From a bacterium (GTDB taxonomy: Bacteria; Patescibacteriota; Microgenomatia; Curtissbacterales; GWA2-41-24): a stretch of DNA of 64,000 nucleotides. How positions within the stretch are numbered: the first letter of the stretch is position 1; every line of letters starts with the position of its first letter. This document shows positions 1,725 to 64,000 of the stretch, in pieces. The notes under the pieces are model-generated. The model saw only the letters and a program-made list of their open reading frames with translations, searched no databases and was not told where the DNA came from. The stretch covers positions 206,115 through 270,114 of the forward strand of contig JAKAJD010000001.1 in the NCBI GenBank assembly GCA_021813945.1. The letters are read 5' to 3'. The position numbers and the translations under genes were made by a program.

Positions 1725-1731
1725 TACAACC

Positions 1732-2283: not shown

Positions 2284-2287
2284 ATCG

Positions 2288-3193: not shown

Positions 3194-3975
3194 TGAACTT
3201 TCAAGATAAACTTATATCAGCCCAAAGACAAAACAACAGCCTTCTTTGTGTCGGCCTGGATCCGGACCCTCAAAAACTTCAAAAAGCCGAAACTCAGTTT
3301 GACTTCAACAAAAAAATAATTGATGCAACATCGCAATCTGTCTGCTGCTATAAACCGCAAATCGCTTTTTACGCAGCCGCAGGTGAAAATGGCCTACAGA
3401 GTCTTAAAAAGACGGTCGATTACATTCATCAAGCTTACCCAAATGTCCCCGTCCTTCTGGATGCCAAAAGAAACGACGTTGGCCACACTTCTGAAATGTA
3501 CGCACAAGAGGTTTTCGATATCATAGCCGCAGACGGAGTGACGGTCACACCATATTGTGGGTTTGACTCTCTAGAACCGTTTTTCAAAAGGGGCGACAAG
3601 GGAATCTTTGTGATTTGCCGGACATCCAACCCCGGCGCGGCCGATTTTCAAGATCTCAAAGTAGGGGAAAGCCCGCTCTACGTCGAAGTTGCCAAGAAAA
3701 TCGTTGAATGGAGCAAAACGTATTCCAATGTTTATTTGGAAATTGGTGCAACATGGCCCGAAGAGATAGGAGTCCTCAGAAAACTTGCACCCGACATGCC
3801 GTTTTTGATTGCAGGAATTGGCGCTCAAGGTGGCGACCTTGAAGCAACTCTCAAAAATGGTCTGACAAAAGGTAAAGACGGCTTGATAATCTCAAGCTCC
3901 AGGGGCATAATTTACGCCGATAATCCCAAAAAAGCTGCCCAGGATTTGAAAGAAGAAATCAACAAGTACAGATGA
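3172..3975 (+). CDS. pyrF: orotidine-5'-phosphate decarboxylase (type 2, long form)
   Basis: LCVGLDPDP...CYKPQIAFY...LLDAKRNDVGHTS...ICRTSNPG motifs. The start is either ATG 3172 (22-nt overlap with prs) or the in-frame GTG at 3193. Confidence 0.85.
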   Translation: MPQGRALVNFQDKLISAQRQNNSLLCVGLDPDPQKLQKAETQFDFNKKIIDATSQSVCCYKPQIAFYAAAGENGLQSLKKTVDYIHQAYPNVPVLLDAKRNDVGHTSEMYAQEVFDIIAADGVTVTPYCGFDSLEPFFKRGDKGIFVICRTSNPGAADFQDLKVGESPLYVEVAKKIVEWSKTYSNVYLEIGATWPEEIGVLRKLAPDMPFLIAGIGAQGGDLEATLKNGLTKGKDGLIISSSRGIIYADNPKKAAQDLKEEINKYR

Positions 3976-4577
3976 TTAAAAATAGTCAAAAAGAAAAATT
4001 AGTTCTTGCTCTTTATGAAATTGGAGCAATCAAATTCGGAAAGTTTAAGCTGAAATCCGGGAAAATCTCGCCTTTTTATCTGGACCTTCGTTTCTTGTGC
4101 TCATACCCTGAAGTATTAAAGCTTGTGGCCAGCTCAATCAACGAGATACTCAATGATCTGAAATACGACTTAATTGTCGGAATCCCTTACACCGGAATCC
4201 CTATCGCTACAGCTGTCGCTCTCCAGTATGACAAAAAAATGATTTTTACCCGAAAAGAAGCAAAAGATCACGGGATCCAAAGAATGATCGAAGGCATTTA
4301 TAAAAAGGGCCAGCGTTCAGTTTTAATCGACGATGTAATAGCCGACGGAGCCAGCAAGTTTGAAGTTATTGAACCACTAGAAAAAGAAGGTCTAGTTGTC
4401 AAAGACGTCATTGTGATTTTAGATAGAGGACAGGGTGGCGCAGACATTATGAAAAAAAGAGGTTACAATTTGCATTCTGCCCTCAACATTGAAGAAGTCA
4501 TATCAATCTTAAGGTCTAAAGGTAAAATCAGCACCAAACAGGTAGCCGAAATCCGCGCTTTCTTATCAAGTCTTTGA
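3972..4577 (+). CDS. pyrE: orotate phosphoribosyltransferase
   Basis: ALYEIGAIKFGKFKLKSGKISPFYLDLR... and the PRTase motif VLIDDVIADGAS. ATGA overlap with pyrF. Confidence 0.9.
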   Translation: MIKNSQKEKLVLALYEIGAIKFGKFKLKSGKISPFYLDLRFLCSYPEVLKLVASSINEILNDLKYDLIVGIPYTGIPIATAVALQYDKKMIFTRKEAKDHGIQRMIEGIYKKGQRSVLIDDVIADGASKFEVIEPLEKEGLVVKDVIVILDRGQGGADIMKKRGYNLHSALNIEEVISILRSKGKISTKQVAEIRAFLSSL

Positions 4578-4608
4578 ATAAAACCGGCCCTCAAGCTAAA
4601 ATAAGCTA

Positions 4609-5679
4609 ATGCTTCAAGACCCGTTTTACGACCCAACGATATCCTACGAAGAAAATTACGAAGAAGGCCCGTTCAATGCGTTTGCAGACGGCAAAATTTA
4701 TCAGCAAAAAGGTGAACCAAAACATGGTTTTCTCGGTCAAAAAGTCTATCTTCCATTTGGAATTCCCGCAGGGCCACTCTTAAATAGTAAATTTGTAAAA
4801 AGCGCTTTTGAAAAAGGCTTTGATGTCTGCGTCTACAAAACCGTCCGCGCAAATGTCTTCCCGTGCCACGCTTTTCCAAACGTCCTCTCAATTCATTTTC
4901 AAGGCAAAGACTTATCAATGGAAAGGTTGAAAAAAGAAGTAGTTGCCGACGAAAATTTCCAGGATCCAATATCAATCACCAATTCTTTCGGAGTGCCGTC
5001 AAAAAACCCTGAAATATGGCAAGAAGACGCAAAAAGGGGCATCTCCTTTGCCGGCAAAGGCCAAGTTATGATTTTAAGTTTCATGGGAACAGTAAAAAAA
5101 GATCAAACACAAAAGGAATTTATAGATGATTTCATTCTTGCAGCAAAACTGGCTAATGAAACCGGAGCAAAAATTCTGGAAGCAAATCTTTCTTGTCCAA
5201 ATATCGGAAACGAAGGTCTTGTCTGCTATAACCTTCCGGTCACAGAGAAAGTAGTCAATGGAATAAGAAAAGCAATTGGCAACAAACCCCTAATTCTTAA
5301 AATCGGCTATTATCAAAACCAAAAGGATCTGGAAAAACTTGCAGAAATTACCAACGAGTATGCAGACGATGTAGCAGGTATAAATACTCTCCAGGCAACA
5401 ATAGTTGATCACGAAGGGCAGCAAGCTCTTCCAGGTCCAAACCGCCTAAGAAGCGGTGTCTGTGGATATGGTATTAAATGGGCCGGTCTTGAAACGGTTA
5501 GACAGCTGAAAAATATCAAAGAGAAAAGAAACTACAAATTCTCAATCACAGGTGTTGGCGGGGTTTTGTCAGTCAAAGACTATCAAGAGTACAAGACTGC
5601 CGGAGCCGATTGTGTTATGAGCGCAACCGGTGCAATGTGGAATCCATATTTAGCTCAGGAAATAAAAAAAGCGATTTAA
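4609..5679 (+). CDS. pyrD: dihydroorotate dehydrogenase-like (class 1 DHOD/DHPD family TIM barrel)
   Basis: ANLSCPN...KPLILKIG...ITGVGGV...GADCVMSATGAM are hallmarks of DHOD-family flavoenzymes. It completes a prs-pyrF-pyrE-pyrD block. Confidence 0.75.
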   Translation: MLQDPFYDPTISYEENYEEGPFNAFADGKIYQQKGEPKHGFLGQKVYLPFGIPAGPLLNSKFVKSAFEKGFDVCVYKTVRANVFPCHAFPNVLSIHFQGKDLSMERLKKEVVADENFQDPISITNSFGVPSKNPEIWQEDAKRGISFAGKGQVMILSFMGTVKKDQTQKEFIDDFILAAKLANETGAKILEANLSCPNIGNEGLVCYNLPVTEKVVNGIRKAIGNKPLILKIGYYQNQKDLEKLAEITNEYADDVAGINTLQATIVDHEGQQALPGPNRLRSGVCGYGIKWAGLETVRQLKNIKEKRNYKFSITGVGGVLSVKDYQEYKTAGADCVMSATGAMWNPYLAQEIKKAI

Positions 5680-24266: not shown

Positions 24267-24899
24267 ATGTCCAGAGAAGGCCAAACCTTAACAACAATAG
24301 CCCTTATTTTTTTTGGACTATTTATTACATTTACTGTAATTGTTGGCTTAAGCTTGTTCAGCACGATAGATATACAGAGCACTGTCTATCTTCAAAACAT
24401 AGTGCCTCATTTTTTAGACCTGCCATTTTCCTTTTTAAGCTTTCTTGGATCATTTGAGGTAACTTTTGCAGTGTTGGTGGCAATTATAGTTACAAAGTAT
24501 GCAAAAAATTCGCGTCAAGCAATCTACACAATCATAGCCTTCTTGATTGGGACAATTGCCGAGCTCAGCGGTAAGTTGTACTTATTCCACCCATCGCCAC
24601 CTAAATTGTTTTTCCGCCATGTCGATATATTGTTTCCAACCACTTATGTTCATACAAATTATTCTTACCCCTCAGGGCATATGTTTAGAACAACATTTTT
24701 AATAGTGTTATTCATTTATTATTTATCCGGTTCAAAGAAAAAAATTTATCCAATAATTCTTCTTATAGTAATATTATTTTTAATGGCTTCGTCAAGAATT
24801 TATCTTGGTGAACACTGGTTAAGTGATGTAATTGGAGGAATACTTCTTGGAACTTTTTTTGGAATAACGCTCATCAATGTTGTAAACCGAACAAACTAA
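24267..24899 (+). CDS. PAP2 family lipid phosphate phosphatase
   Basis: YSYPSGH and SRIYLGEHWLSDV are PAP2 motifs 2 and 3. Multi-TM protein. Confidence 0.8.
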   Translation: MSREGQTLTTIALIFFGLFITFTVIVGLSLFSTIDIQSTVYLQNIVPHFLDLPFSFLSFLGSFEVTFAVLVAIIVTKYAKNSRQAIYTIIAFLIGTIAELSGKLYLFHPSPPKLFFRHVDILFPTTYVHTNYSYPSGHMFRTTFLIVLFIYYLSGSKKKIYPIILLIVILFLMASSRIYLGEHWLSDVIGGILLGTFFGITLINVVNRTN

Positions 24900-24902
24900 T
24901 TT

Positions 24903-26822
24903 GTGCACAAAAAGATAGATTTACTTTTGATTGCATTTTTACTTATTCTATCTATTTTTTTCATTAGCTCGCATATTGCACCGGGGTCAACTGATGCATA
25001 TTGGCATCTTGCCGTAGGTCGGCAAGTTTGGCAAGAAAAAAAAGTAGTGCAGGAAGACAAATTCATTTATGGGTCCCAAAATCATTACTTTACATCTGTA
25101 GAATGGTTGTCAGGCCTAATAACGTATGCACTTGTGAAAACAGCAAGTGTCAATTCAATTTATGTCTTGAGAGTTTCAATCGGCCTAGCCATTTTGCTTA
25201 TCGTTTATTCAACAAATCAACTATTCAATTTAAAAAAAAGCTTGAACTATGCGGCGATTTTGCTATTAGCGTACGTTTTGCCTTCAAGGTTAAGCCTCGA
25301 TCGTCCAGAAAATTTCAGCTTGCTTTTTGTCGCAGCCATCAACTTCTTTGGCTTTTACTATCTGACAAGGCGCAAAATTACATACTTTTTTTTAACTCTT
25401 CCAGTAATATTCTTGTTGTGGCCAAATCTGCACGTATATGTGCCAATAGGCATATTTTTATTGGTTGCCTGGCTTTTAATTTATTTTCTGTCTTTTCTGG
25501 AAGATCACACAAAAATAGCGGAATTAAGATCCATATCGATAATAGTGTCCCTTTCCGCCCTAATGGCCGTTATTCAGTTTAGACGATTCATTTTCTTTTT
25601 ATTCACACCGTCTTTTGCGAAGTTTAGCGTTGGCGAGCAAGTTTCAATATTTTCAAGATTAAACGAAATAAAAATAAACTTTTTAAACCAAGTGCCGTTC
25701 GAAATATACGTCTACTTTTTTGTCTCGGTAGTATTTTTTATTATCAGCACAATTTTTATTTTGAAGAAAAATTTTAAGCTCAGCAACTTGTGCGTTCTTC
25801 TAATGGGGGCCTTTATTACAATACTCCCTGCAATATATTTTAGGCTTATAGCCTTGGAGAGTATTCTTGTTATACCAGTCGCCCTTTATCTCTTGTCCTT
25901 AACGGGCCTGAAAGATAAAACGGTCACCTACATATCAAATTCAGTTTTAGCCTTTTTGACATTTATTATTTTGATCTCAATATTTATTGGCCACCCTCTA
26001 GGGTGGAGGCAGTATTGGCGTTATTATCAAAACAATCAAGGAGACTACATCGGGGTTAGAAATTTTTCATGGACTGCTCAATTTCCAAAAAGCATTTCAG
26101 AAAATATAAACAAAAATTTATATTCAAAAAGAATTATAACTTCTAAAATCTGGAGCAACTATTTAATTTGGATGCTGCCTGGCGTTAAAACATTTTCTGA
26201 TGCCCAGTGGACATTTAGAACAGAAGATGATTTTAAAGATGAACAGAATTTAAACGGCGGAACAAATAACTGGGAAGAGCTATTAAAAAAATATAACATA
26301 GACACAGTCGTAAATAGCCAGTATGATTCAATAATTGACAACTTTACACCTGTATACCAATTGCCAAATTGGAAGTTGGCTTATGTTGACAGCAATGCTG
26401 TGATTTATGCGCGCAATGATGTTATAAAAAATCTTCCAGTTAATTTATCCAAAATCCACCCAGAGCAAGCCTACATTCCCTTCAATTTATCTTTTGATCC
26501 TAAAGACGAAGAAGCAGCAAATCAGCTGAGAGCCTTACTGCGTTATGATGACAAAAATTCCTTTGCAAGATCACAATTAATTTTATATGAGATGAATTAT
26601 CAAAACGATTTGGAAAATGCAAAAAAATTAACATTAGAATCGAAGTTATTAATTCCACAAGACCCTATATTTAGCTATTTCATGACAGCAATTTACGCAA
26701 GAGAAAATAAATGTGACCTTGCATTAAGCTTTGCCAAAGAAATGAAGCAAAAGAGCTTCGGCGACATTAACTTCTCTCAAGCCGCAAACACGGAACTTGC
26801 AAAATGCCAAAAAGCGATATAA
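24903..26822 (+). CDS. large polytopic membrane protein, GT-C-like glycosyltransferase candidate with a C-terminal soluble/TPR-like domain
   Basis: About 12 predicted TM helices followed by a roughly 250-aa hydrophilic tail. GTG start at 24903. Lies directly downstream of PAP2. Confidence 0.5.
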   Translation: MHKKIDLLLIAFLLILSIFFISSHIAPGSTDAYWHLAVGRQVWQEKKVVQEDKFIYGSQNHYFTSVEWLSGLITYALVKTASVNSIYVLRVSIGLAILLIVYSTNQLFNLKKSLNYAAILLLAYVLPSRLSLDRPENFSLLFVAAINFFGFYYLTRRKITYFFLTLPVIFLLWPNLHVYVPIGIFLLVAWLLIYFLSFLEDHTKIAELRSISIIVSLSALMAVIQFRRFIFFLFTPSFAKFSVGEQVSIFSRLNEIKINFLNQVPFEIYVYFFVSVVFFIISTIFILKKNFKLSNLCVLLMGAFITILPAIYFRLIALESILVIPVALYLLSLTGLKDKTVTYISNSVLAFLTFIILISIFIGHPLGWRQYWRYYQNNQGDYIGVRNFSWTAQFPKSISENINKNLYSKRIITSKIWSNYLIWMLPGVKTFSDAQWTFRTEDDFKDEQNLNGGTNNWEELLKKYNIDTVVNSQYDSIIDNFTPVYQLPNWKLAYVDSNAVIYARNDVIKNLPVNLSKIHPEQAYIPFNLSFDPKDEEAANQLRALLRYDDKNSFARSQLILYEMNYQNDLENAKKLTLESKLLIPQDPIFSYFMTAIYARENKCDLALSFAKEMKQKSFGDINFSQAANTELAKCQKAI

Positions 26823-29207: not shown

Positions 29208-30164
29208 ATGAATTGGATTGATCTTGTAATTATTTTAGTTGTTTTGGCTTTTGCTATCGAAGGTCAGAGTCAAGGTTTTCTGGATCAAACATTAAATATT
29301 TTAGGGTTCGCATTTTCGCTTATTGCAGCGCTGCTATTTTATTCTTCTTTGGATAATGTATTATCAAAAGGTTTTAACTTATCACCCATAATCGCTGCTC
29401 CTATTGGATTTCTAATAATTTGGGTTGTAATAGAAACAGCATTTGCATTAATTATTAATGGTTTTCTCATAAAATATTTGCAAAAATTTGAAAAAAATAA
29501 GCTGAATCAATATTTAGGCTTTATACCCGCTATTTTTAATGCACTATTGTTTCTTTCATTTGTGCTATTGCTTTTCGTGTCTCTACCTGTAAGACCGGAT
29601 TTAAAAAACGATGTCTTTAGATCCAAAATCGGATCTTACTTAGTACAAAAAGCGATAACTTTAGAGCGCCCCTTAGACAAGGTTTTTGGACCTATTACAA
29701 AACAGTCACTGACATTTTTAACAGTTGATCCCAAAGAAAGCGGCTCCATCGACCTGCACTTTAAACAAGACCAACTGACAATAAATTACACAGACGAACG
29801 AGAGATGCTAAATCTAGTAAATAGTGAAAGGGCAAAAGTAGGAGTAGCACCCCTAACATGGAGCAATGCTTTGGCAGGTGTTGCCAGAGCTCACAGTGAG
29901 GATATGTTCAAACGTGGCTATTTTTCACACTTTTCGCCGGAAGGAAAAGACGTCGGGGACCGACTTTCGGATTCCGGCATTCCTTATACTTACGCTGGTG
30001 AAAACCTTGCACTTGCGCCAAATTTGCAAACAGCATTCCAGGGTTTAATGGGCAGTGAAGGCCACCGCCGGAATATGCTGGACCCAGCTTTTCATAAAAT
30101 AGGCATTGGCGCTGTAAACGGTGGTGTTTATGGCGAAATGTTTACACAAGTCTTTACCGAATGA
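29208..30164 (+). CDS. fusion of a CvpA-family membrane domain (N-terminal) with a CAP/SCP/PR-1 extracellular domain (C-terminal)
   Basis: The N-terminal 4-TM region resembles CvpA. The C-terminus has CAP motifs: ...LTWSNALAGVARAHSEDM..., HFSPEG, GENLA, GHRRNML. Confidence 0.7.
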   Translation: MNWIDLVIILVVLAFAIEGQSQGFLDQTLNILGFAFSLIAALLFYSSLDNVLSKGFNLSPIIAAPIGFLIIWVVIETAFALIINGFLIKYLQKFEKNKLNQYLGFIPAIFNALLFLSFVLLLFVSLPVRPDLKNDVFRSKIGSYLVQKAITLERPLDKVFGPITKQSLTFLTVDPKESGSIDLHFKQDQLTINYTDEREMLNLVNSERAKVGVAPLTWSNALAGVARAHSEDMFKRGYFSHFSPEGKDVGDRLSDSGIPYTYAGENLALAPNLQTAFQGLMGSEGHRRNMLDPAFHKIGIGAVNGGVYGEMFTQVFTE

Positions 30165-31711
30165 CGAAAAAACTCCCAAAATCATTACAAGTTTTTCTCA
30201 TCTTAATTCTTGCCCTCTTCTTGCTTACGCGAAAAATTGATAAACCCTTTTGGGGACATCACGACTGGAATAGCGTTGTCTACAGTAATATTGCAAGAAA
30301 CTATATTAGATATGGATATATAAAAACTAAATTTGGACAGGTCACGTCTGTTGATTTACAGAAACCTGAACATTTCACATATATCACTCATTACCCGCCA
30401 TTACTCCCGATTTTGATAAGCATAAATTTTCGTATATTCGGCCAATCAGAACTTGCTGCACGATCAACGATCGTCCTTTTTTCATTAATTTTAATTTTTT
30501 TCATTTATGAAATCGGTAATGAATTAGGAGGCAAATTGATGGGATCTCTAGCTTCAATATCTCTTACATTAACTCCTATTTTCATGTATTTCGGGAAATT
30601 ACCTGTTCACGACACAATAGTTCCTGCTATATCAGCAGCAGGTTTTTGGTCGTATATAAGATATATCAAAACGAAATCAAACAAATATTATGCACTCCTT
30701 GCCATAACTATTATTATAGGGGGCTTAATAAACTGGAGCGCATATTACTTAGTTCCAGCACTTCTATTTATGCAAATTACAACTAAAGCTGGTAAACAAA
30801 TAAGAGGCAATATCTATAAACTAATGCCACTCGCTATTCTTATTTTCTTAATTCAAATAATCCACACCAATATCTTGGATAGCGCATCTACAGGTTCAAT
30901 TTTCAGTAATGTTCTCGAGAGAATAGATCCTTATCTGACATCATCTCTTTATGGCTTTGCATTTTTCAAATACATAAGGCAAGAACTTTTATACCTAAGA
31001 ATTTATTACACAATGCCGGTGTTTTTAGGTTCTGCTTTTTTTATTCTGTTGACACTTTTTAATATATTTAAAAAGCAAAGAAGGTTAAATTCGGAGCAAC
31101 TTTTTATTTACGCACTATTTATTTACGGCGCTATCCAGCTTGTTCTTTTTTCTCAACTTTCATTTATTCATGATTATATGATCTATTATCTGGCGCCTTT
31201 TATGAGTTTATCCTTTGCCTACATTGCAACAAAAATGATAGACCCTTTTAAAAAATCTCTCATATGCCCGATTCTCTTGATTGGAATATTCTACTTCATA
31301 TTTGTAAGCCAGCTGAAATTTACTAAAGCCCTCATCGCAACAGATACAAATAAAAGGGGATTTCTTGTAGGTCAGTTAATAAATAAAGAATCGCCTTCAG
31401 GATCCTTAAGTTATATAACATCAAATTCATACAAAGAGTTTCAGGAAGTATTTATCGGTTATTATTCAGACAGAAATGTATCTTACGGGGAAAGTTTACC
31501 AAGGGATTTTGAAAGTAAATACGAGCTAATCGTAAGGCCAAAAGACCATGACCCTTTGCCGGTTGAACAAAAAGAAATTTTAGATACAAGATACCTGCGT
31601 TACGAAGATAATAATTTTATCTGGTACAAAACGAAGTTTACGCGAAGCAAATTTAACGTTTCTTCTCTACGGTCTCTACAACATCTAGAAGCCACGGATT
31701 TTCATCAATAA
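30161..31711 (+). CDS. GT-C fold membrane glycosyltransferase (ArnT/PMT family, GT39/GT83-like)
   Basis: N-terminal FWGHHDWNSVVYSNIARN, HYPPLLPIL and more than 10 TM helices are typical of ArnT/PMT_2 enzymes. ATGA overlap with the CvpA-CAP gene. Confidence 0.7.
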   Translation: MTKKLPKSLQVFLILILALFLLTRKIDKPFWGHHDWNSVVYSNIARNYIRYGYIKTKFGQVTSVDLQKPEHFTYITHYPPLLPILISINFRIFGQSELAARSTIVLFSLILIFFIYEIGNELGGKLMGSLASISLTLTPIFMYFGKLPVHDTIVPAISAAGFWSYIRYIKTKSNKYYALLAITIIIGGLINWSAYYLVPALLFMQITTKAGKQIRGNIYKLMPLAILIFLIQIIHTNILDSASTGSIFSNVLERIDPYLTSSLYGFAFFKYIRQELLYLRIYYTMPVFLGSAFFILLTLFNIFKKQRRLNSEQLFIYALFIYGAIQLVLFSQLSFIHDYMIYYLAPFMSLSFAYIATKMIDPFKKSLICPILLIGIFYFIFVSQLKFTKALIATDTNKRGFLVGQLINKESPSGSLSYITSNSYKEFQEVFIGYYSDRNVSYGESLPRDFESKYELIVRPKDHDPLPVEQKEILDTRYLRYEDNNFIWYKTKFTRSKFNVSSLRSLQHLEATDFHQ

Positions 31712-50869: not shown

Positions 50870-53755
50870 ATGGACAAAATAATCATAAAAGGTGCAAGGG
50901 AAAACAACCTTAAAAATTTAAGCGTTGAAATCCCAAAAAATAAGCTGATTGTCTTCACCGGCATTTCCGGTTCAGGTAAATCATCTTTGGCTTTCGACAC
51001 AATCTACGCAGAAGGCCAACGCCGTTACGTCGAATCGTTAGCCTCGTACGCTCGTCAGTTTCTTGGTGTGATGGACAAACCCGACGTTGACTCAATTGAA
51101 GGCCTTTCCCCAGCAATCTCGATCGATCAAAAATCAACTTCCCATAACCCTCGTTCAACTGTAGGTACAGTCACGGAAATTTACGACTACCTTAGACTTT
51201 TATTCGCAAGAGTTGGTCATCCACATTGCCCGATTTGCGGGCGTGAAATTGCCCATCAGTCTGCAGCACAAATAGTCGACGAAATTCAAAAATTACCACA
51301 ACAGACAGGTTCTAAAAACTTTAAAATCTTGCTTCTTTCTCCTGTTGTCAAAGACCGCAAAGGAGAATTCACACAACTTTTCAGGGATCTTTTGAAAAAG
51401 GGCTACCGCGAAGCCAGAATCGACGGTCAAATTAGAGAAATCGATGAAGATTTTACCCTCATCAAAACTAACAAACATACAATAGAAGTAGTTATGGATA
51501 GGCTGATAATCCCTGCGGAAAAGCAGCGCCTTTCTCAGTCAGTCGAGCAAGCGCTGAAGTTATCAGAAGGATCCCTTATAGCCTCTGAGATCCTAGATAA
51601 AAGCTTCGAAATTCAGAAATATCCCAAAGAGTTAAAGGACCATCTTTTTTCCGAAAAATTCACTTGTCCTGTAGATAACATTTCTTTGCCAGAAATAGAA
51701 CCTAGATCATTTTCTTTTAATTCACCTCATGGCGCCTGTCCAAAATGTAATGGCTTAGGGGCAATTAAGAAAGTCGATCCTAAATTGGTCATCAATCCAA
51801 ACCTAACCATAGCAGAAGGCGCAATACTTCCTTGGGCAAGGATAGTTGGAAGCGATTCATGGTCCTGGAGGGTGTTAGAAACAGTCTGCAAAGAAAACAA
51901 CATAAACATAAACATCCCTTTCCGTGACCTAAATCAAAGCGCTCGAGAGCAAATCTTAAACGGTACAGGCGATAAGCTTTATCGAATCAAGGGCCCAAAC
52001 AGGTTTGGCAAAATCGTGACTTGGGATAGCAATTTTGAAGGCGTAACAGAAAACATTGAGAATAAATATTCCCAGACAGAATCAGATTTCGTCAGGCGCG
52101 AAATTGAACGTTTTATGAGGCAAGAAGAATGTGAAACTTGCGTGGGAACCAGGCTCAAGCCGGAAGCACTTTCGGTGACAATCGAGAAAAGATCGATAGC
52201 TGACATCTCGCTCCTGAGCATACAGGATTTCTTTGCTTGGTTAGAAAAACTCCAAAAGAACGAAACAAATATTCTGTCAGAACGAGAAGCCCTGATTGCC
52301 AAACCTATCTTAAAAGAGCTGATAGCTCGAACAAAGTTTCTTGTCGACGTAGGTTTAGATTACCTAACAATTGCCAGGTCGGCTGTAACCTTGGCCGGTG
52401 GGGAAGCACAACGCATTCGTCTGGCGTCACAAATTGGATCTGGTCTTTCAGGCGTTTTATATGTTTTGGACGAGCCCTCAATTGGCCTTCACCAAAGAGA
52501 CAATCAACGCCTTATATCAACATTAAAAAAACTTCGCGATTTGGAAAACACGGTTATTGTAGTCGAACACGATAGCGAAATGATGTTTGCATCCGATGAA
52601 ATTTTGGATTTCGGACCTGGTGCGGGCGAACACGGGGGGCAGATAATTTCTCAAGGTTCCCCTCAAGCGATAACTAAGGACACAAATTCTTTAACTGGAA
52701 AATATCTATCTGGCAAAAAGGAAATCAAGCTGCCTAAAAGACGCATTGTTTCCAAAAGCGGCTTAGCGCTAGATCTTATAGGTGCAAAAGAACACAACCT
52801 CAAAGATATAGACGTGACATTTCCCCTGGGAAATTTAATTTGTGTAACAGGTGTATCTGGATCTGGCAAGTCGACATTAATCCATGACGTTTTGTATAAC
52901 GCGATAGCTGCCGAACTATACACGTCAAAAGACAAACCAGGTGCTTATAAGTCACTAAGGGGCTTAGAAAATGTTGATAAAGTGATTCTTATAGATCAGT
53001 CACCAATTGGCAGGACACCACGCTCTAATCCTGCGACCTATACCGGTGCCTTTACGCATATTCGCGAACTGTTTTCTCAAACAACGGACGCTCGAATCCG
53101 CGGCTACAACCCCGGACGATTTTCTTTTAACGTCAAAGGTGGCCGCTGCGAAGCTTGCGAAGGTGAAGGCCAGGTAAAAATAGAAATGCAATTTCTTCCA
53201 GACGTTTATGTTGATTGTGAAGTATGCGGGGGCAAAAGGTATAACGAAGAAGCCCTAGAGGTTCATTACAAAGGGAAAAATATCTCAGAAGTTCTCCAAA
53301 TGACAGTGGAAACCGCTTTAGAGTTTTTCCAAAACATTCCGCAAATTAAACAAAAACTGGAAACAATAAACGATGTAGGTCTTTCTTATATCCATTTAGG
53401 CCAGCCTGCGCCAACACTCTCTGGCGGGGAGGCTCAACGGGTAAAACTGGCAACCGAGCTATCCAAAAAGGCAACAGGCAGAACTATTTATATTTTAGAC
53501 GAACCAACAACCGGGCTTCATTTTGCCGATATCGAGAGGCTGCTCAAGATTTTGGATAGATTAGTTTCAACAGGGAACACTGTTATAGTCATTGAACATA
53601 ACATGGATATAATTGCCAATGCAGATTGGATAATCGATTTAGGACCGGAAGGCGGAAACAATGGCGGCCAGGTAATTGCAGAGGCAACACCGCAAGATTT
53701 GGCTAAAATTCCTGCGTCTTATACAGGGCAATTTCTCAAAAAGTATCGCACTTGA
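50870..53755 (+). CDS. uvrA: excinuclease ABC subunit A
   Basis: Two ABC ATPase modules ([12 protein letters not shown] and [10 protein letters not shown]), LSGGEAQR signature motifs and Zn-finger Cys clusters. Confidence 0.95.
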
Positions 53756-55670: not shown

Positions 55671-56954
55671 TTGTTACAATGCAAGGCTGTGAAGACTCTT
55701 GCAGAGAAGATTAAAAAACTCCCTAACACACCAGGGATTTACCAGTTTCTCTCGAAAGACAAAAAAATTATCTACGTCGGAAAATCTGTTTCGATCAAAA
55801 AACGCGTAGGTTCCTATTTTAACAACAAAAATTTAGGCCCTAAAACCGATATGCTCGTTAAAAATATTGCCGACGTAAAAACGATAAAGGTTTTTTCCGA
55901 ATTTGAAGCTTTAATGCTTGAATCGGAACTTATAAGAACCAATATGCCCTTTTACAACGTAATTGCCAAAGACGACAAAAGTCCAATTTACATCAAAATT
56001 GAAGGTGAGATTCCAATTATAAGCCTATCAAGAAAGGTAAAACCGCAACGGGGGGTATTTGTAAAAGGGCCTTTTCCGTCAGCAAAAGCCACAAAAGACG
56101 TTCTGAAAATCGTAAGAAAAGTTTTTCCATATTGCCAGCACAAAAACCCCAAGAAACCTTGTCTATACGTTCACCTAGGTCTATGCCCGTACCCATATAA
56201 AGACGCTGCGACGAAAATCGAATATAAAAAAACAGTCGATCGAATTAAAAAGCTTTTATCTGGTAAAAGTAAAAAGCTTATCCGAGAACTTTCTTCAGAA
56301 ATGCAACAAGCATCTAAAAAACTTGATTATGAAAAGGCAGCAAAAATTAAAAAACAGATTCAAAACCTTGAATATTTGGCTACTGTTTTTCACACCCCAA
56401 GAGAATTCCTGGAAAAACCAACACTTGTAGACGACTTAGCTTTAATAAGGTTAAAAGATTTAAAAGCGAAACTTAATTTGAAAAAGCTCCCTAGAAGGAT
56501 TGAATGCTACGACATTTCAAATTTGCAGGGTAAGCTTGCAACGGGATCGATGGTTGTATTTATAAACGGGGCAGTAGAAAAATCAGAGTACAGGCGTTTT
56601 AGAATAAAATTTTCAAACAAGCCGAACGATTATCAAATGCTTCAGGAAGTTATCACAAGGCGCCTTAAAAATTCTTGGCCTCAACCTGACTTAATGATCA
56701 TAGATGGTGGAAGAGGTCAACTAAATGCGGCGCTTTCAATACTTGCAAAATTTAAAAGTGGCGATATTCAGGTTGCATCCCTTGCGAAACGGCTGGAGCA
56801 GATATTCATTCCGGACAAAATATTACCAATTGCCCTTCCTAAGGAAAGCCCTGCGAGACAACTCGCACAAGCAGTTCGTGACGAAGCACATCGATTCGCC
56901 ATAACTTACCATAGACACTTAAGATCTAAAGCTTTCCTAAGCCGAATAACTTGA
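55671..56954 (+). CDS. uvrC: excinuclease ABC subunit C (short form lacking the C-terminal HhH region)
   Basis: GIY-YIG (PGIYQF...IIYVGKS...KRVGSYF), UvrB-interacting UVR-like segment, and an Endonuclease-V-like domain (MIIDGGRGQL). The start is TTG 55671 or GTG 55689. Confidence 0.8.
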   Translation: MLQCKAVKTLAEKIKKLPNTPGIYQFLSKDKKIIYVGKSVSIKKRVGSYFNNKNLGPKTDMLVKNIADVKTIKVFSEFEALMLESELIRTNMPFYNVIAKDDKSPIYIKIEGEIPIISLSRKVKPQRGVFVKGPFPSAKATKDVLKIVRKVFPYCQHKNPKKPCLYVHLGLCPYPYKDAATKIEYKKTVDRIKKLLSGKSKKLIRELSSEMQQASKKLDYEKAAKIKKQIQNLEYLATVFHTPREFLEKPTLVDDLALIRLKDLKAKLNLKKLPRRIECYDISNLQGKLATGSMVVFINGAVEKSEYRRFRIKFSNKPNDYQMLQEVITRRLKNSWPQPDLMIIDGGRGQLNAALSILAKFKSGDIQVASLAKRLEQIFIPDKILPIALPKESPARQLAQAVRDEAHRFAITYHRHLRSKAFLSRIT

Positions 56955-58675: not shown

Positions 58676-60049
58676 ATGTCACTTTTATCTGTACGAATAA
58701 GGCGCCTAAAATTTTGGTGGCATTTATTGCTAGCCTACACAAAAAGATACCAGCGTAGAGTGCTAATTTCAGCTTTAATACTCATCCTTATCATCTCAAC
58801 ACTAATAAAGTTATTCCCTATAATAGGGAACGGAAATACAATAACATTAGGCTATGTTGGGAATTACACTATAGAAACAATACCTTCCGAAGTGCTTTCG
58901 CTAGCAACACAGGCACTTATAACAGAAGGCCCAGACGGCAAGGCCCAACCCCAACTGGCATCTCATTGGACGGTTTCGGATGACCAAAAAACTTATACGG
59001 TTTTTTTAAAAGATAATCTGACCTGGCACGATTCAACAACAGTTGATGCCAAAGACATAAGCATTGCAATTTCAAATGTTACTGCAAGCGCAATAAACAA
59101 CAAAACAATCGAATTTCATCTTCCAAATCCGATATCCTCATTTCTCGAAGCTTTGGACAAACCTGTTTTTAAATCAAAAACTTTTTATGGAACCGGGGAA
59201 TTTAGAATTGTAAAAATCGACAAGGTAGATTCAATGATAAAAAGAATAAGACTTCACCCAAAAAACCCAAACTTACCAAAAGTTGAAATTAAATTCTATT
59301 CAACAGAGAAACAAGCTATTGCCGCTTTAAAGATGGGGGATATTAAAGTGTTAAAAGTTGCTAATGTCAAAGCTCTCACGTTATGGCCTAACGTTGATGT
59401 AAAAGTAGCAACCGACAAAAGCTCACTGGTTACCATATTTTTCAAAAACAGCGACCAACTTCTTTCATCTCGAGATTTGCGTCAAGCGCTAAGCTACGCA
59501 ATAAATAAGGACAATTTCGATGGAGAAGCCGCTTATGGCCCTATATCATCTGCAAGCTGGGCATATAATCCATCTGTAAAAAGATACGATTTTAGCCCTG
59601 CAAAGGCAAAAGAGCTTATAGCAAGAACAAATGCCAAAGGCCAAACAATTACACTCTCAGTAATGCCGGGTTTGGATGATGTTGCCAAACAGATCCAAGA
59701 AAATTGGCAAGCAATTGGGATAAACGTGAAACTTAAACCTGAAAAGGGAATACCTTTAAAATTTCAAGCACTTTTAGCGGTAAACCATCTTCCGCCGGAT
59801 CCCGATCAATACGCACTATGGCACTCTACACAAAAATCTACAAATATAACCGATTACGTAAATGTAAAAATAGACAAAATTTTAGAAGATGCAAGATCTA
59901 CACAAGACGATAGCCAAAGAAAAGATTTGTACTTCGATTTTCAACGGTATCTTGTAGAAGACGAACCTGCAGCCTTTTTGTATCACCCCAACACATATCA
60001 GGTAATTTATAAAAACTCAGAAAACATGTTTAAAGAATTGCCACTCTAA
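58676..60049 (+). CDS. extracellular solute-binding protein, family 5 (Opp/Dpp-type), orphan
   Basis: N-terminal anchor and SBP_bac_5-like core (TLGYVGNYTIETIP..., ...LTWHDSTTVDAKDI...). No permease or ATPase genes are adjacent. Confidence 0.65.
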   Translation: MSLLSVRIRRLKFWWHLLLAYTKRYQRRVLISALILILIISTLIKLFPIIGNGNTITLGYVGNYTIETIPSEVLSLATQALITEGPDGKAQPQLASHWTVSDDQKTYTVFLKDNLTWHDSTTVDAKDISIAISNVTASAINNKTIEFHLPNPISSFLEALDKPVFKSKTFYGTGEFRIVKIDKVDSMIKRIRLHPKNPNLPKVEIKFYSTEKQAIAALKMGDIKVLKVANVKALTLWPNVDVKVATDKSSLVTIFFKNSDQLLSSRDLRQALSYAINKDNFDGEAAYGPISSASWAYNPSVKRYDFSPAKAKELIARTNAKGQTITLSVMPGLDDVAKQIQENWQAIGINVKLKPEKGIPLKFQALLAVNHLPPDPDQYALWHSTQKSTNITDYVNVKIDKILEDARSTQDDSQRKDLYFDFQRYLVEDEPAAFLYHPNTYQVIYKNSENMFKELPL

Positions 60050-60061
60050 ACCAAAACTAAG

Positions 60062-61627
60062 CTAACTTGCCAGATTTAGGAAAAACCTTACAAAACCATT
60101 TCCCGAATTCTGTCTAATAAAATTCAACAAATCTCCATGGTCTATTTGTGGAGGATTCGTTTTCCACCACTCGACGTTTTTTTCAAATACATTAGAAGTA
60201 GCGACACTTTCTAAAAGATTAGTGCTTGTGCCTTCTCGGATAGGCTCCCAATTAAATTCACCACCTCTTTCACAAACCATTATATTTTTTCCATCCAGGC
60301 TTTCCCGACCGTCCATGTATATAAATAAAGAAAGTGGGTGGCTTATCCTGTTACCGTTTAGGGGACAGCTGAAAATATTAAAAGAATGAGTATAATTTTT
60401 TGAATAAATATCATTCTTAAGAAGGTTTATATTGTTAAAATTAATCTGGCTTGGACCCAAAAGCCCTAAAGATGTTTTTACAGACACCAAAACTACTAGC
60501 GTGACAAAAGCCATTCCTGTCAAAGCATTCTTTTTATAAAGTTCAAAACAAGCCCAAGACGAGAGGACGATTACCAAAGGATATGCAAATAAGCTGTAAT
60601 AGTTAAATCTCTCGCCACGATAGTATCGATAAATCACAATCTCGAATATAAAAACAAGAAGAATAACAAAAATAGGCCTTTTTAAAGATAAATTTCTGGC
60701 TTCCCGAAAAAGGAAAAGCAAAAGCAGAATAATGATTGCGTACGAAACAATGGAGTTGCCTGATACGATTTCTGACCAAGCCTTCGGCCAATAGGAGAAA
60801 ACGTATGTAAGCCAGCGGTTGGGAACCCAAATTTTATACTGATCAACAAGTAAATAAATCAATAAATTCCTTGTGTCAAACCAGAAATGATAATAATCAA
60901 AATAAACTAAAGGCGAAAATGGCAACACAAATCCGACAATACCGACAATAATACTTACAGCAATATTTTTAAATTTTTTTGAGAAAAAAACGTAAACCAC
61001 TCCAAAAAGAAAAGATGGGGTTAGCAAAATGCCCTGAAAATGAACAGTTATACTGAGTCCTGAAAAAAAACCTAAAAGAAATAAATAATAAATTCTTCCA
61101 TTTTCAATAAATTTCAAAAGCAGAAAAATTATTATCAAAGCGAAAAAAGGCATAATCGAAGGGTTCCAAACGGACAGTGAATTGTTAATAAGGCCAGGAG
61201 AAACCGACGCAAACATCAGGCTAAAAAGTCCAACGTATCTTCCACCAATTTTTGAACCTAAAAAGAAAATGCAAACAAGAAATAGTACGGATAGTAAAGA
61301 CATAAAATACCATACCGTTAAGTATCCCAGGGGATGAGCGTACAAAGTCTCTAGAAACCAATACCACCAAGGGCCGTAAAAAAAAGGGGCAGCAGACGAA
61401 AACTGGCCAATAATTGGAACTTTCCCGTGGTCATAGGCAAAGATCGCTATTTGCGCATCACGCGAATTATCTGCATCTAAATGAACTCTGTTAGCATAGT
61501 TATAAGTTCTAAAGAAAATTCCCAAAGCTACGGCAAAACCGACTAAAAAGTAATAAACTGAAAATCTGTTTGCTAAAGACTTGAGTTTTTCCGCAAAAAT
61601 TTTGACGTTATCCTTGGGCGGTCTCAT
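60062..61627 (-). CDS. GT-C-like polytopic membrane glycosyltransferase, paralogue 2
   Basis: N-terminal loop motif ...LDADNSRDAQIAIFAYDHGKVPIIGQFSSAAPFFYGPWWYWF... shared with the 61624-63141 and 63382-64000 ORFs. About 12 TM helices and a C-terminal soluble domain. Confidence 0.6.
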   Translation of the reverse strand: MRPPKDNVKIFAEKLKSLANRFSVYYFLVGFAVALGIFFRTYNYANRVHLDADNSRDAQIAIFAYDHGKVPIIGQFSSAAPFFYGPWWYWFLETLYAHPLGYLTVWYFMSLLSVLFLVCIFFLGSKIGGRYVGLFSLMFASVSPGLINNSLSVWNPSIMPFFALIIIFLLLKFIENGRIYYLFLLGFFSGLSITVHFQGILLTPSFLFGVVYVFFSKKFKNIAVSIIVGIVGFVLPFSPLVYFDYYHFWFDTRNLLIYLLVDQYKIWVPNRWLTYVFSYWPKAWSEIVSGNSIVSYAIIILLLLFLFREARNLSLKRPIFVILLVFIFEIVIYRYYRGERFNYYSLFAYPLVIVLSSWACFELYKKNALTGMAFVTLVVLVSVKTSLGLLGPSQINFNNINLLKNDIYSKNYTHSFNIFSCPLNGNRISHPLSLFIYMDGRESLDGKNIMVCERGGEFNWEPIREGTSTNLLESVATSNVFEKNVEWWKTNPPQIDHGDLLNFIRQNSGNGFVRFFLNLAS

Positions 61628-63141
61628 CTATAAAACAAACCAGGGTTGATTCCAAAATCGAATGATATCTTTTGCTGCTCATCAGAAAGAGCGTATTTTT
61701 CAATCTTAAAATTATTTTGAAGGTACCATGTTGTAAGCGGCTCATTGTTAATCCTTACCGCCCCGTATTTAAACTTGACTGCTGTTGTTGTTGGATTGTT
61801 AGATGGAGGCTCGTCAATAATGTAAGTAACAGCTCGTTTTGAAAAAGCGTAACCGTTTTTCCTAAAAACCTGATGAGCATACTCCATTGCATAACGAGGT
61901 CCATAGCCAAATATATCCGGCGAATAGATAAAGTAACCAAATTCCTTATCAGGTTGAGAGTATACGATTGACGACGTACTCAAAAGAGCTTTCCAGGAGA
62001 ACTGGTTCTTACCAATGATTTTTTTAGACTGGTCTATAAAGTTAAAAACGGAAATCATGTTTAAAATGTAAATAGCTATAAAAGCGGTAAGAAATAGTTT
62101 GCGGTATTTGGATGTCCAAAAAGAAGAAAATATCAAAAACACAAGTGAGTACATCGGGAAAGTATAGTTGTAAAGAAGGTCGTACCTATTTAAAAGGCTA
62201 AATACAAAAAATCCAAAATAAAAATAACAAAACCATAAGTAAATCTGACGATATTTACTTTCCTTAAACTGCCCAAACAAAAGAATAAAAAAGATTATAG
62301 AAGGAATGACGTTAATATAGGAAAAATTGAAGTGCAAAAATTCCGTGCTTCTGAATACATTTACAAAACGATTAAAAATTATCTCCAAAAAGGAAGAATG
62401 CGGATCACTTGTTCCCAAATGGCGAATGACGTTTCTGACTAAAATATGTTCGTGCCTTAAGTCAAATAATATAAATGTGCTAAATGGTATCGAGTATGCG
62501 CTTAGAAAAATTAAATGCCGAAAGTGTTTACTTTTCCAGCAGATATAGCAAATGGCAAGAACCGAAAGCGCAGAAAGAGGAATTCCAACTGCCATTTGCA
62601 TTTGTATCATTCCGCCGGCAAACAATATATGTAAGAGAAGGTGACGCAACTTAAACGTTTTAATATATCTAACGAATGAAAAGAAGAATAGTGGCAGTAG
62701 AAAAAAAGCTCCATGCGGATTAATAAACTCACGTGTGCGAAAAATCAAGTATACGGAGATTAAAAGAACGTACAAAATTGCGCTATTTTTATTAAATAAG
62801 GATTTTGCAACAAAATAAAAAATCGCGATAAAAGTTATATACAAGATCACCCAGTACCAGCCTAAAAAAACCGGGTTGCCATGACCCATTAAATACCCTG
62901 GATAAGTTAAATAAATCCATAAGGGGCCATGGTATAATCCCCCAACACTTGATCTTGGTCCGATCAGAATCAATTTCTTTTGGTCTACTTCTTTAAAAAT
63001 CCACATATCTCTTGCCACGTCGGCGCTAAAATAAATATCTCCATGTAGCGCGTACCAAGACGCAAAAAAGGCATTTAAAACCAGGAGAAAAACGACAAGA
63101 ATAAGAACAAGCTTTTTATAAGACCATTCAAGTTTTATCAC
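61624..63141 (-). CDS. GT-C-like polytopic membrane glycosyltransferase, paralogue 1
   Basis: ...FSADVARDMWIFKEVDQKKLILIGPRSSVGGLYHGPLWIYL... ATGA overlap with the downstream paralogue. Confidence 0.6.
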   Translation of the reverse strand: MIKLEWSYKKLVLILVVFLLVLNAFFASWYALHGDIYFSADVARDMWIFKEVDQKKLILIGPRSSVGGLYHGPLWIYLTYPGYLMGHGNPVFLGWYWVILYITFIAIFYFVAKSLFNKNSAILYVLLISVYLIFRTREFINPHGAFFLLPLFFFSFVRYIKTFKLRHLLLHILFAGGMIQMQMAVGIPLSALSVLAICYICWKSKHFRHLIFLSAYSIPFSTFILFDLRHEHILVRNVIRHLGTSDPHSSFLEIIFNRFVNVFRSTEFLHFNFSYINVIPSIIFFILLFGQFKESKYRQIYLWFCYFYFGFFVFSLLNRYDLLYNYTFPMYSLVFLIFSSFWTSKYRKLFLTAFIAIYILNMISVFNFIDQSKKIIGKNQFSWKALLSTSSIVYSQPDKEFGYFIYSPDIFGYGPRYAMEYAHQVFRKNGYAFSKRAVTYIIDEPPSNNPTTTAVKFKYGAVRINNEPLTTWYLQNNFKIEKYALSDEQQKISFDFGINPGLFYR

Positions 63142-63241
63142 AGCGCGAAGCAGATATACTAAACTTTAGTTGAAATCAGAAAGCTCTGCAATAAGTAGTT
63201 TAATAGGGAAATCCCAGAGTTTTATTAAGAAGAGCTTCTTG

Positions 63242-63316
63242 GGTGGCTGAGGGGACTCGAACCCCCGACATCCGGCTCCACAAGCCAGCGCTCTAACCAA
63301 CTGAGCTACAGCCACC
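63242..63316 (-). tRNA. tRNA-His (anticodon GUG) with an encoded G-1
   Basis: Minus-strand sequence G-GTGGCTGTAGCTCAGTTGGTTAGAGCGCTGGCTTGTGGAGCCGGATGTCGGGGGTTCGAGTCCCCTCAGCCACC. Anticodon loop TTGTGGA. G-1 pairs with C73. Confidence 0.85.
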
Positions 63317-63381
63317 AAGCATGCAAATTATACCAAAATACAGTTTGATTTATCTTGGAATTTGAAGGTATTATTCAAGAA

Positions 63382-64000
63382 GTGTTTGGAAACTCGCGGC
63401 AAATTATAAGATCAATTATTATTTTTTCACTTGCTTTTTTGTGCTTTGAATATCTTCGCAGCATTTTAAATGGGTATTCAGCATTTTGGTTTGATCCTGC
63501 AAGGGACTTTACTCTCGCGCTTTCTAATCTTAAAAAAATTTCTCTTATCGGCTCACCTACGGGAATACCAAGTGTTTTTTATGGACCTTACTGGATTTGG
63601 CTCATCAGCTTAGGAATGCTAACAACCAAAGATCCGGCACTGATTATAATTTTTCTTCAAGTTATTCCGTATCTTGTCATCTTTCCAGCATTGTTTTTTA
63701 AATTCAAAAAATTCTTTTCAAAAGAAATAATCTTGGCACTTTTATGGCTTTTTTACCTTTCATCAGGAAGTTACATAGTACAAATTTGGAATATAAACTA
63801 TGCTCCGCTGATATTTCTTGCAACAACTTATTTAGTAATCGCTCTCTCAAGCCTAAGAAAACCTACTCTAAAATTTCTTTGTCTTTTTATCATAGCGATT
63901 TTAAACGCGCTTCTTATTAATTTTCATTTCTCTTTCGGTTTTGCTGTCAGCTTATCAACGGTAATTTTTATTACCATATCGCAGCTGAAAGAAATCTTGT
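63382..64000 (+). CDS. GT-C-like membrane glycosyltransferase, paralogue 3 (3' end beyond the window)
   Basis: Open frame from GTG 63382 (or TTG 63355) to the window end. It is not in the ORF track because no stop is reached. ...FDPARDFTLALSNLKKISLIGSPTGIPSVFYGPYWIWL... is homologous to the two minus-strand paralogues. Confidence 0.5.
   Translation, partial: MFGNSRQIIRSIIIFSLAFLCFEYLRSILNGYSAFWFDPARDFTLALSNLKKISLIGSPTGIPSVFYGPYWIWLISLGMLTTKDPALIIIFLQVIPYLVIFPALFFKFKKFFSKEIILALLWLFYLSSGSYIVQIWNINYAPLIFLATTYLVIALSSLRKPTLKFLCLFIIAILNALLINFHFSFGFAVSLSTVIFITISQLKEIL

Follow-up and report, generated by a model that had tools for sequence, protein, structure and literature searches.

Four predicted GT-C-type membrane glycosyltransferase paralogues around tRNA-His in a Microgenomates genome

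A three-component pathway consisting of a GT2 enzyme, a flippase and a GT-C enzyme has been described (PMC11127046). Systems of this kind (Gtr, CsbB/YfhO, GT136) resemble the genes reported here in that members of the family to which these belong lie beside a GT2 gene in 14 of 81 loci, are fused to one in two cases, and share their clusters with YfhO-type proteins; they differ in having a single GT-C each instead of several side by side, and the 64-kb stretch of DNA that we analysed (the window) contains neither a GT2 gene nor a flippase. Among individual GT-C enzymes, ArnT (GT83; PDB 5f15) shows only 12% identity and gives no sequence-level match, even when family profiles are used. The lipid A that serves ArnT as acceptor is expected to be absent from bacteria of this monoderm type. 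ALG12 and ALG9 (GT22; PDB 9s6t, 9s6u), at 12-13% identity, are Dol-P-Man-dependent mannosyltransferases of the eukaryotic ER that lack a C-terminal soluble domain. The mycobacterial and corynebacterial GT-Cs (MptA/B/C, AftA-D, EmbA-C, PimE) have structural scores much below those of ALG12 and ArnT, and their large lectin-like C-terminal domains are absent from the family. Patescibacteria (CPR) are uncultivated organisms with tiny genomes that probably live attached to other cells, and their envelope chemistry is almost unknown; a limited literature search for GT-C, GT39 or ArnT enzymes in this group returned nothing relevant.

Against this background, we examined a locus in which polytopic membrane proteins are arranged around a histidine tRNA gene. 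Its features are as follows.

60062-61627, minus strand: paralogue A, 521 aa, predicted GT-C-fold glycosyltransferase, PMT_2-like
61364-61471, minus strand: loop motif of A, D53-N-S-R56-D57 ... I-G74 ... Y-G85-P86-W-W
61624-63141, minus strand: paralogue B, 505 aa, an open reading frame homologous to A
62917-63021, minus strand: loop motif of B, D41-V-A-R44-D45 ... I-G61-P ... H71-G72-P-L-W
63241-63315, minus strand: tRNA-His (GTG), called by ARAGORN
63382-64000, plus strand, running past the window end: paralogue C, GTG start, open frame
63493-63594, plus strand: loop motif of C, D38-P-A-R-D ... I-G ... Y-G-P-Y-W

The three homologous polytopic proteins of the original prediction were thus recovered at their coordinates, as were the ATGA overlap between A and B and the position of tRNA-His between B and C. 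The number of paralogues needed correction: they are indeed clustered, but there are four and not three, since on the parent contig a fourth, D (499 aa), begins 2 nt downstream of C, just beyond the window. The full-length C encoded there has 508 aa, or 517 aa if translation begins at an alternative TTG codon at 63355. The tRNA therefore separates two divergent pairs, B-A and C-D, and shares its strand with the former. B lies upstream of A, and the 4-nt ATGA stop/start overlap, read directly in the sequence, indicates that B-A is probably an operon. A scan of positions 59900-64000 for promoters and terminators yielded no more sites than shuffled sequences did, and hence transcription units can be inferred solely from this overlap.

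We consider it likely that A-D all belong to a single large GT-C family, as yet unnamed and centred on the Microgenomates, within which these four diverged long ago. Its members would use polyprenyl-phosphate-linked sugars outside the membrane. When A, B and C were compared with every ORF of 150 aa or more in the window, they matched solely one another at E < 0.01 (pairwise BLASTP: A/B 4e-08 over 222 aa, A/C 4e-05, B/C 1e-05). Profile comparison extends the relationship to the whole protein: hhalign aligned the A-family and B-family profiles over 428 columns (prob 99, E 2.8e-18) and placed C and D in the same family (prob 99.4 and 99.5); the homology of B, C and D to A extends over their full length. 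Homologues of B in Microgenomates number more than 519, and the family falls into at least 1,558 clusters when grouped at 50% identity, its overall size being put at roughly 1,500-5,600 clusters. Where the homologues of A and B carry any name in their source, it is mostly 'hypothetical protein'; a large family of this description is now given a fold and a probable mechanism.

The assignment to GT-C enzymes rests on the predicted structure of A together with profile matches. The AF2 model of A (pLDDT 93) has about 13 transmembrane helices and a small C-terminal alpha/beta domain of about 120 aa, and in a Foldseek search against the PDB every match at E <= 0.001 was a GT-C enzyme, with TM-scores to solved GT-Cs of only about 0.5. 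The Pfam profile PMT_2 (PF13231) is matched by A (31.3 bits) and D (33.8 bits), both above the gathering threshold of 26.1 bits. B and C set the family apart from PMT_2 enzymes, as B and the partial C have no match to this profile at E <= 1, nor the full-length C at E <= 0.001; a minority of B orthologues do have a precomputed PF13231 match. Neither B nor C has a hit among curated profiles (Pfam, NCBIfam), NCBIfam scans of a set A-F that includes A-D gave nothing above cutoff, and searches of PDB sequences, also with family profiles, detected no PDB sequence. The profiles that had been suggested for this family did not fit: for YfhO (PF09586), DUF2079 and GT87, and likewise for true PMT/GT39 (PF02366, MIR, PMT_4TMC), A, B and C gave no match at E <= 1, and full-length C and D none at E <= 0.001. 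GtrA and MATE profiles found nothing in A-D either. By predicted structure and sequence, A-D nonetheless belong to the GT-C fold superfamily, showing both its polytopic architecture and a conserved acidic residue in the first loop. The original assignment as GT-C-like is thereby upheld through the fold search of A, the PMT_2 matches of A and D and the homology of B-D, and no profile search placed the paralogues in a non-glycosyltransferase family.

The acidic residue lies in a loop motif, D-x-x-R-D...[IV]G...[YH]GP, that A, B and C share. The N-terminal signature in its originally proposed, literal form matches A alone, but a relaxed core, D..RD-x12-20-[IVL]G-x8-12-[YHF]GP.[WY], is common to all three; in a six-frame translation of the window it finds exactly A, B and C, and in 200 residue shuffles it has no match. 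It is also kept in orthologues. In an alignment of 124 family members from about 80 species, D53 is Asp in 94% and Glu in 6% of the sequences, R56 and D57 are each conserved in 91%, and G74 and G85 each in 99%; in 34 B-type sequences, R44, D45, G61, P62, H71 and G72 are invariant. Some A-type orthologues lack R56 and D57 (e.g. DNAWL, DHSLF), leaving the first Asp alone as universal. In the model of A, the motif follows directly after TM1 (H24-41), within helix H52-66, and a K/R-rich N-terminus precedes TM1. D53 of A is the putative catalytic acid.

How old, and how mobile, is this cluster? The original prediction spoke of a tandem family expansion, which does not hold as a recent event. Mutual identity among A, B, C and D is 18-23%, while in other Microgenomates A has orthologues at 35-55% identity and B at 40-77%, and D-type orthologues occur at 7 loci; the C-type group is thin, with one clear case. 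With paralogues at about 20% identity and clear orthologues of A, B and D elsewhere, the duplications that gave rise to A-D are, on sequence grounds, ancient. The slot between tRNA-His and SBP has nevertheless changed: in three related species it contains {B,A}, {A} or {B}, and across species the size and order of the cluster differ widely, from one to more than eight genes. Since its content differs between related species, the gene set at this slot is evolutionarily plastic, as is the set of steps that it would encode.

One may go further, in keeping with the original prediction, and regard the cluster as a tandem expansion that is specific to the lineage, turns over fast and sits at a hotspot linked to the tRNA, providing surface decoration that varies between strains, for instance in the evasion of phages or hosts. 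The varying slot and the variable cluster size would fit such a view, as would two relatives (L088, L089) in which the same tRNA lies directly upstream of a single GT-C gene and the contigs break exactly at the tRNA. We find it rather doubtful, however, because the paralogues are so divergent, because orthologues of A, B and D are spread over several candidate phyla-level groups, and because the four contigs of the source species that carry A, drawn from four samples, have 100% identical DNA across the locus. No integrase, repeat or mobile-element gene was found near the locus. The GC content of A-D (32.5-35.9%, against 39.6 ± 2.8%) is low, but the same is true of every other gene for a membrane protein in the window (PAP2 34.0%, 24903-26822 34.8%, 30161-31711 33.3%); a feature common to all of them reflects composition and not origin. 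An origin of the locus as an island, or through horizontal transfer, was rejected on these grounds. Of the proposed variable surface decoration, what remains is the difference in slot content among three related species, an indirect indication, whereas the contigs within the species show no variation.

Returning to the reading of A-D as old members of a GT-C family, gene neighbourhoods in relatives suggest the source of their sugars. Clusters that combine family genes and GT2 genes are found repeatedly, in about 80 species. The gene directly beside the B-type gene was compared at 81 loci, all from different species: it encodes a GT2 in the 14 cases cited above, while at 20 loci it is a GT-C of the family and at 11 a PMT_2 GT-C. 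Runs of consecutive GT-C and GT2 genes reach 8-11. YfhO proteins are neighbours at four loci (L010, L030, L053, L071). When neighbour genes were grouped by single linkage, GT2 and GT-C were joined through a real fusion protein, and the group was then split by length. Two fusions are known to us from this material: a 765-aa protein (L027:5967-8264) made up of a GT2 domain, two transmembrane helices and an A-type GT-C with the motif DNARD, and a 752-aa protein (P0196) that combines GT2 with a family GT-C. Together, the clusters and fusions support the usual route, in which a GT2 enzyme would make a polyprenyl-phosphate-sugar donor and a GT-C would transfer the sugar outside the membrane. In the window (about 45 genes scanned) and 10 kb beyond, no GT2 gene, GtrA/Wzx/MATE flippase or sugar-nucleotide gene was found.

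We therefore picture each paralogue as a predicted polytopic enzyme of about 13 helices whose active site, in the first extracytoplasmic loop, would be the conserved acid of D-x-x-R-D; this residue is D53, D41 and D38 in A, B and C, respectively. The topology, with its K/R-rich N-terminus, suggests that this site faces outward at the cytoplasmic membrane. The donor, to judge from GT-C biochemistry, the GT2 neighbours and the two fusions, would be a polyprenyl-phosphate-linked sugar, made by a GT2 polyprenyl-phosphate glycosyltransferase on the cytoplasmic face and flipped across, after which an acceptor on the outer side would receive single sugars. Because A, B and D have orthologues of their own elsewhere, each paralogue most likely has a different sugar, linkage or acceptor. 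Acting as a set, A-D would assemble a glycan of the cell wall or surface, or decorate it, by analogy with mycobacterial Mpt/Aft/Emb or eukaryotic ALG3/9/12, and as acceptor we prefer a glycopolymer over protein. The fold and the likely chemistry are well known, and this is no new kind of enzyme or pathway. As a speculation, and one that we rate as improbable in its full extent, Microgenomates may make a major, undescribed envelope glycopolymer largely outside the membrane by means of GT-C batteries, some of them fused to GT2, in analogy to mycobacterial arabinogalactan and LAM, with the tRNA-His slot swapping steps between species and thereby creating surface diversity for host attachment or phage recognition. 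Studies of CPR surface glycans now have concrete targets in the conserved Asp, in the fusions to GT2 and in the tRNA-His slot with its varying content.

Protein as the acceptor deserves separate consideration. A-D could be PMT-like O-glycosyltransferases that take sugars from polyprenyl-phosphate donors and attach them to Ser/Thr residues of proteins which are secreted or lie at the surface (pilins, S-layer), each paralogue with its own substrates. The PMT_2 profile (PF13231), which A and D match, presumably also includes GT-Cs that do not act on protein, such as ArnT-like enzymes. The PF02366, MIR and PMT_4TMC profiles all remain without a match, and the finding of PF02366 in a neighbour gene of one relative (L007) indicates that this profile is able to detect such proteins in the lineage. 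In the fold search, ALG12 and ArnT, with lipid-linked acceptors, outscore the PMTs, and polysaccharide-type genes (GT4, Wzy_C, YfhO, epimerases) abound at related loci, counted as occurrences without a genomic background. On this evidence, we regard transfer to protein as unlikely. An enzyme of the OST or ligase type, which would take an oligosaccharide assembled beforehand from its polyprenyl-diphosphate carrier and transfer it as one block, instead of using single sugars from a monophosphate, would agree with the best Foldseek E-values, which belong to AglB and PglB. The motif WWD[YW]G, which oligosaccharyltransferases (GT66: STT3/PglB/AglB) carry in a large C-terminal extracytoplasmic domain, is absent from the translations, and the C-terminal domain of the A model has only about 120 aa; we hold this reading to be very improbable. 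That A-D are non-catalytic GT-C-fold scaffolds or transport subunits, like PIG-U/GAB1, is scarcely credible given the near-universal conservation of the acidic loop residue and its surrounding motif, the far higher scores of catalytic GT-Cs and the direct fusion to GT2.

The window contains further envelope genes, all on the plus strand.

24267-24899, plus strand: PAP2 lipid-phosphate phosphatase (Pfam PAP2, 63.4 bits)
24903-26822, plus strand: 639-aa protein that, according to structure prediction, has a GT-C membrane domain, then a middle domain of mixed type and, at its C-terminus, a TPR tail
29208-30164, plus strand: Colicin_V (CvpA) membrane domain fused to a CAP/SCP domain (Pfam)
30161-31711, plus strand: PMT_2-type GT-C, 516 aa (Pfam PMT_2, 52.6 bits), more typical than A-D

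These genes had been read as parts of one envelope-glycosylation system with A-D. They do form an inventory, to which 24903-26822 adds another GT-C; as the genes are scattered among housekeeping genes, and the window lacks both GT2 and flippase, they do not constitute a single system. Six GT-C enzymes nevertheless fall within about 75 kb (A-D, 30161-31711 and 24903-26822), and small Patescibacteria genomes thus invest in many extracytoplasmic glycosyltransferases. The multi-TM protein with a soluble tail indeed follows PAP2 directly, after a gap of 3 nt, an adjacency kept in one relative (L091) but not in another (L090). Its GT-C nature is visible through structure prediction alone; it has no Pfam match, and hhalign against the A family gives no signal (prob 1.4). 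The ArnT/PMT-like gene 30161-31711 is likewise confirmed in its operon, as its start overlaps the stop of its upstream partner, CvpA-CAP, by 4 nt. It aligns with the A family in hhalign over 117 columns (prob 96.5), and its pairing with CvpA-CAP is kept in L091.

The membrane proteins A, B and C had been predicted to be motif-sharing paralogues at 60062-61627, 61624-63141 and 63382 to the window end. The ORFs, the open frame and BLASTP bear this out, but the real number is four, with D lying beyond the window:

60062-61627, minus strand: A, 521 aa
61624-63141, minus strand: B, 505 aa
63241-63315, minus strand: tRNA-His(GTG)
GTG 63382 to beyond the window end, plus strand: C, open frame
L001:5218-6717 (parent contig, just past window base 64000), minus strand in L001: D, 499 aa, 2 nt downstream of C

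The stop codon of B overlaps the start codon of A (ATGA). On the parent contig, C is 508 aa long (517 aa if an upstream TTG is used) and D carries the motif as DQARD...VGPP...HGPLY; the genes are thus arranged as one pair B-A, with tRNA-His, and a second pair C-D divergent from it, with tRNA-Arg(TCT) and tRNA-Gly(TCC) after D. The window sequence, with a GC content of 39.5%, is contained identically in a 976-kb metagenomic contig (ENA ERZ27237587 k141_182599).

When compared with every long ORF of the window, A, B and C match only one another (BLASTP E: A/B 4e-08, A/C 4e-05, B/C 1e-05), a similarity beyond chance. Comparing the profiles of the A-type and B-type orthologues gave a probability of 99 (E 2.8e-18) over 428 columns including the C-terminal domain, and the joint profile is matched by full-length C (probability 99.4) and D (99.5). 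The loop signature proposed as common to the three proteins matches A alone as literally written, whereas in the six-frame translation a relaxed core, D..RD-x12-20-[IVL]G-x8-12-[YHF]GP.[WY], hits A, B and C and nothing else, with zero matches in 200 shuffles. In the structural model of A, TM1 spans residues 24-41, the K/R-rich N-terminus ahead of it being presumably cytoplasmic, and the motif lies in the post-TM1 loop, where a helix (52-66) begins at D53. The catalytic acid of GT-C enzymes sits at this same place, in the loop after TM1. When 124 family members were aligned, A-D together with ORFs taken from the genomes of about 80 species, position D53 was Asp in 94% and Glu in 6%. Conservation of the other positions is 91% for R56 and D57, 99% for G74 and G85 and 90% for P86, and another conserved motif, F-D-x-[RK]-H, is found near residues 243-247 of A. 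Some A-type orthologues have R56/D57 replaced (DNAWL, DHSLF, DQAHD) and retain the first Asp. The original prediction had named lack of conservation in orthologues as an argument against itself; given the conservation in 124 members and the retained Asp, this argument fails.

The AlphaFold2 model of A, built with 46 homologues, is confident (pLDDT 93, pTM 0.91), and its Foldseek matches in the PDB at E<=0.001 are exclusively GT-C glycosyltransferases. Together with matches of A (31.3 bits) and D (33.8 bits) to Pfam PMT_2, slightly over the gathering score of 26.1, this upholds a GT-C-like identity, with the fold of the family taken from the model. B and C have no match in Pfam, none of A-D has one in NCBIfam, and no PDB sequence was detectable for the family, even with family profiles. 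The Foldseek matches have only 7-14% identity and TM-scores of about 0.5, and the family is therefore a remote GT-C branch outside every structurally characterised family. Membership in GT39, YfhO, DUF2079 or GT87, which the original prediction had named for comparison, was not upheld: no profile match was obtained for true PMT/GT39 (PF02366, MIR) or for YfhO, DUF2079 and GT87. The new points are the assignment to GT-C of a large Microgenomates family that mostly lacks annotation, two of its subfamilies escaping curated profiles altogether, and the GT2 fusions and variable tRNA-His slot described below. Among the papers searched, none deals with GT-C enzymes in CPR bacteria. The superfamily is a known one, and the family is expected to share its established chemistry; a specialist would not find the assignment surprising.

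A recent tandem expansion is contradicted by the divergence of A-D, which are only 18-23% identical to each other, and by the orthologues of A, B and D found elsewhere. Those of A are 35-55% identical; B has >519 homologues, with orthologues at 40-77%; D-type proteins at seven other loci score 140-190 bits, versus about 40-50 bits across paralogues; and the sampled loci hold one clear C-type protein. Searched against 1.84 billion representatives, clustered at 50% identity, the joint profile matched 1,558 clusters with E<=1e-30 and 5,659 with E<=1e-10. Every homologue of A and B that bears a name belongs to the Microgenomates-type Patescibacteria (Curtiss-, Levy-, Gottesman-, Davies- and Roizmanbacteria). 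On such sequence comparisons, the family is old and large, with several subfamilies.

The content of the tRNA-His slot differs between species. Contigs L088 and L089, from two close relatives whose flanking proteins are 73-82% identical to those of the window and 88-90% to each other, start with the same tRNA-His, followed by one GT-C gene and then SBP_bac_5-SecG-CofD-holin-UvrC as in the window. L088 carries an A-type gene there (55% identity to A) and L089 a B-type one (76% identity to B), so that the slot holds {B,A}, {A} or {B} across three related species. No other evidence touches the variable surface decoration originally proposed, and this evidence is at species level. That the locus is a fast-turnover hotspot, a reading compatible with glycosyltransferase function, is possible but doubtful: slot content varies between species, four contigs of the window's species, recovered from different samples, show 100% identity, and no integrase or repeat was found near A-D. 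We do not claim horizontal transfer of A-D, the low GC of these genes being common to all membrane-protein genes of the window. In both relatives the contig stops precisely at the tRNA-His gene (L088:2-76, L089:3-79), a sign of a possible assembly break on the C/D side, caused by variation or a repeat.

Scanning one genome of each GTDB species with the pattern yielded 80 loci, all Microgenomates-type. Many of the species-representative MAGs (L009, L011-L013, L017, L019 and others) are titled "uncultured Gammaproteobacteria" or "Pseudomonadales bacterium", titles that look wrong. Many loci contain further family members within ±10 kb, and in 44 of 83 two or more GT-C/GT2 genes are adjacent. At L053:28-20663, L010:18-12464 and L027:5967-20290, 8-11 genes of GT-C, GT2 or YfhO type stand in a row, clusters that far exceed that of the window in size. 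The direct neighbour of the B-type gene, in 81 loci, is a family GT-C (20), GT2 (14), PMT_2-type GT-C (11) or PTPS_related/DUF6541 membrane protein (6); GT4, sugar epimerase/dehydratase, Wzy_C, hexapeptide acyltransferase and YfhO genes recur nearby, counted as recurrence only. Two proteins join GT2 to a family GT-C:

L027:5967-8264, minus strand: 765 aa, N-terminal GT2 with DADEH, two TM helices, A-type GT-C with DNARD
P0196 (protein): 752 aa, N-terminal GT2, two TM helices, family GT-C

Such fusions would place donor synthase and user in a single polypeptide. In the established three-component logic, GT2 makes a polyprenyl-phosphate sugar that GT-C uses outside the membrane (PMC11127046), and the fusions give Rosetta-stone support for the family working in this way. 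The active site would face outside, with polyprenyl-monophosphate sugars as probable donors for single-sugar transfer; A-D probably differ in specificity, and a glycan is favoured over protein as the acceptor. Protein O-glycosylation by A-D, the reaction of PMT-type enzymes, we consider unlikely; PMT_2 matches A and D, and true PMT/GT39 profiles match none of A-D. En-bloc, OST-like transfer is very improbable, and non-catalytic proteins, given the conserved acidic motif, are the least credible reading of all.

Other parts of the proposed glycosylation inventory are as follows:

24267-24899, plus strand: PAP2, adjoining 24903-26822
24903-26822, plus strand: 639 aa, predicted GT-C fold membrane domain and C-terminal TPR tail
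29208-30164, plus strand: fusion of a CvpA (Colicin_V production) membrane domain and an extracellular CAP/SCP domain
30161-31711, plus strand: more typical PMT_2 GT-C (52.6 bits)

The last two genes overlap by 4 nt and are translationally coupled, in line with the operon predicted, and the pair is kept in relative L091 (47% identity); the core of the PMT_2 protein is related to the A family (hhalign probability 96.5). The large multi-TM protein with a tail after PAP2 was likewise correctly described. It has no profile match, only about eight homologues were found, and its PAP2 adjacency is kept in L091 but absent in the more distant L090, where the homologue adjoins a LytR_C-domain gene. With five GT-C genes in the window and D just outside, the inventory is unusually dense. 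It is not a single coherent locus, as the GT-C genes lie amid about 45 other genes that are housekeeping (pyrimidine synthesis, GatA/B, DnaE, glycolysis, UvrABC), with no GT2, GT4 or flippase among them. Three further products encoded in the window are:

159-1724, plus strand: PolX-type polymerase (HhH, DNA_pol_B_thumb and PHP), 521 aa
5686-7176, minus strand: methyltransferase and alpha/beta-hydrolase fusion, 496 aa
53788-55665, plus strand: transglutaminase-core protein, 625 aa, between uvrA (50870-53755) and uvrC (55671-56954)

The order uvrA, transglutaminase-core gene, uvrC is the same in L088.
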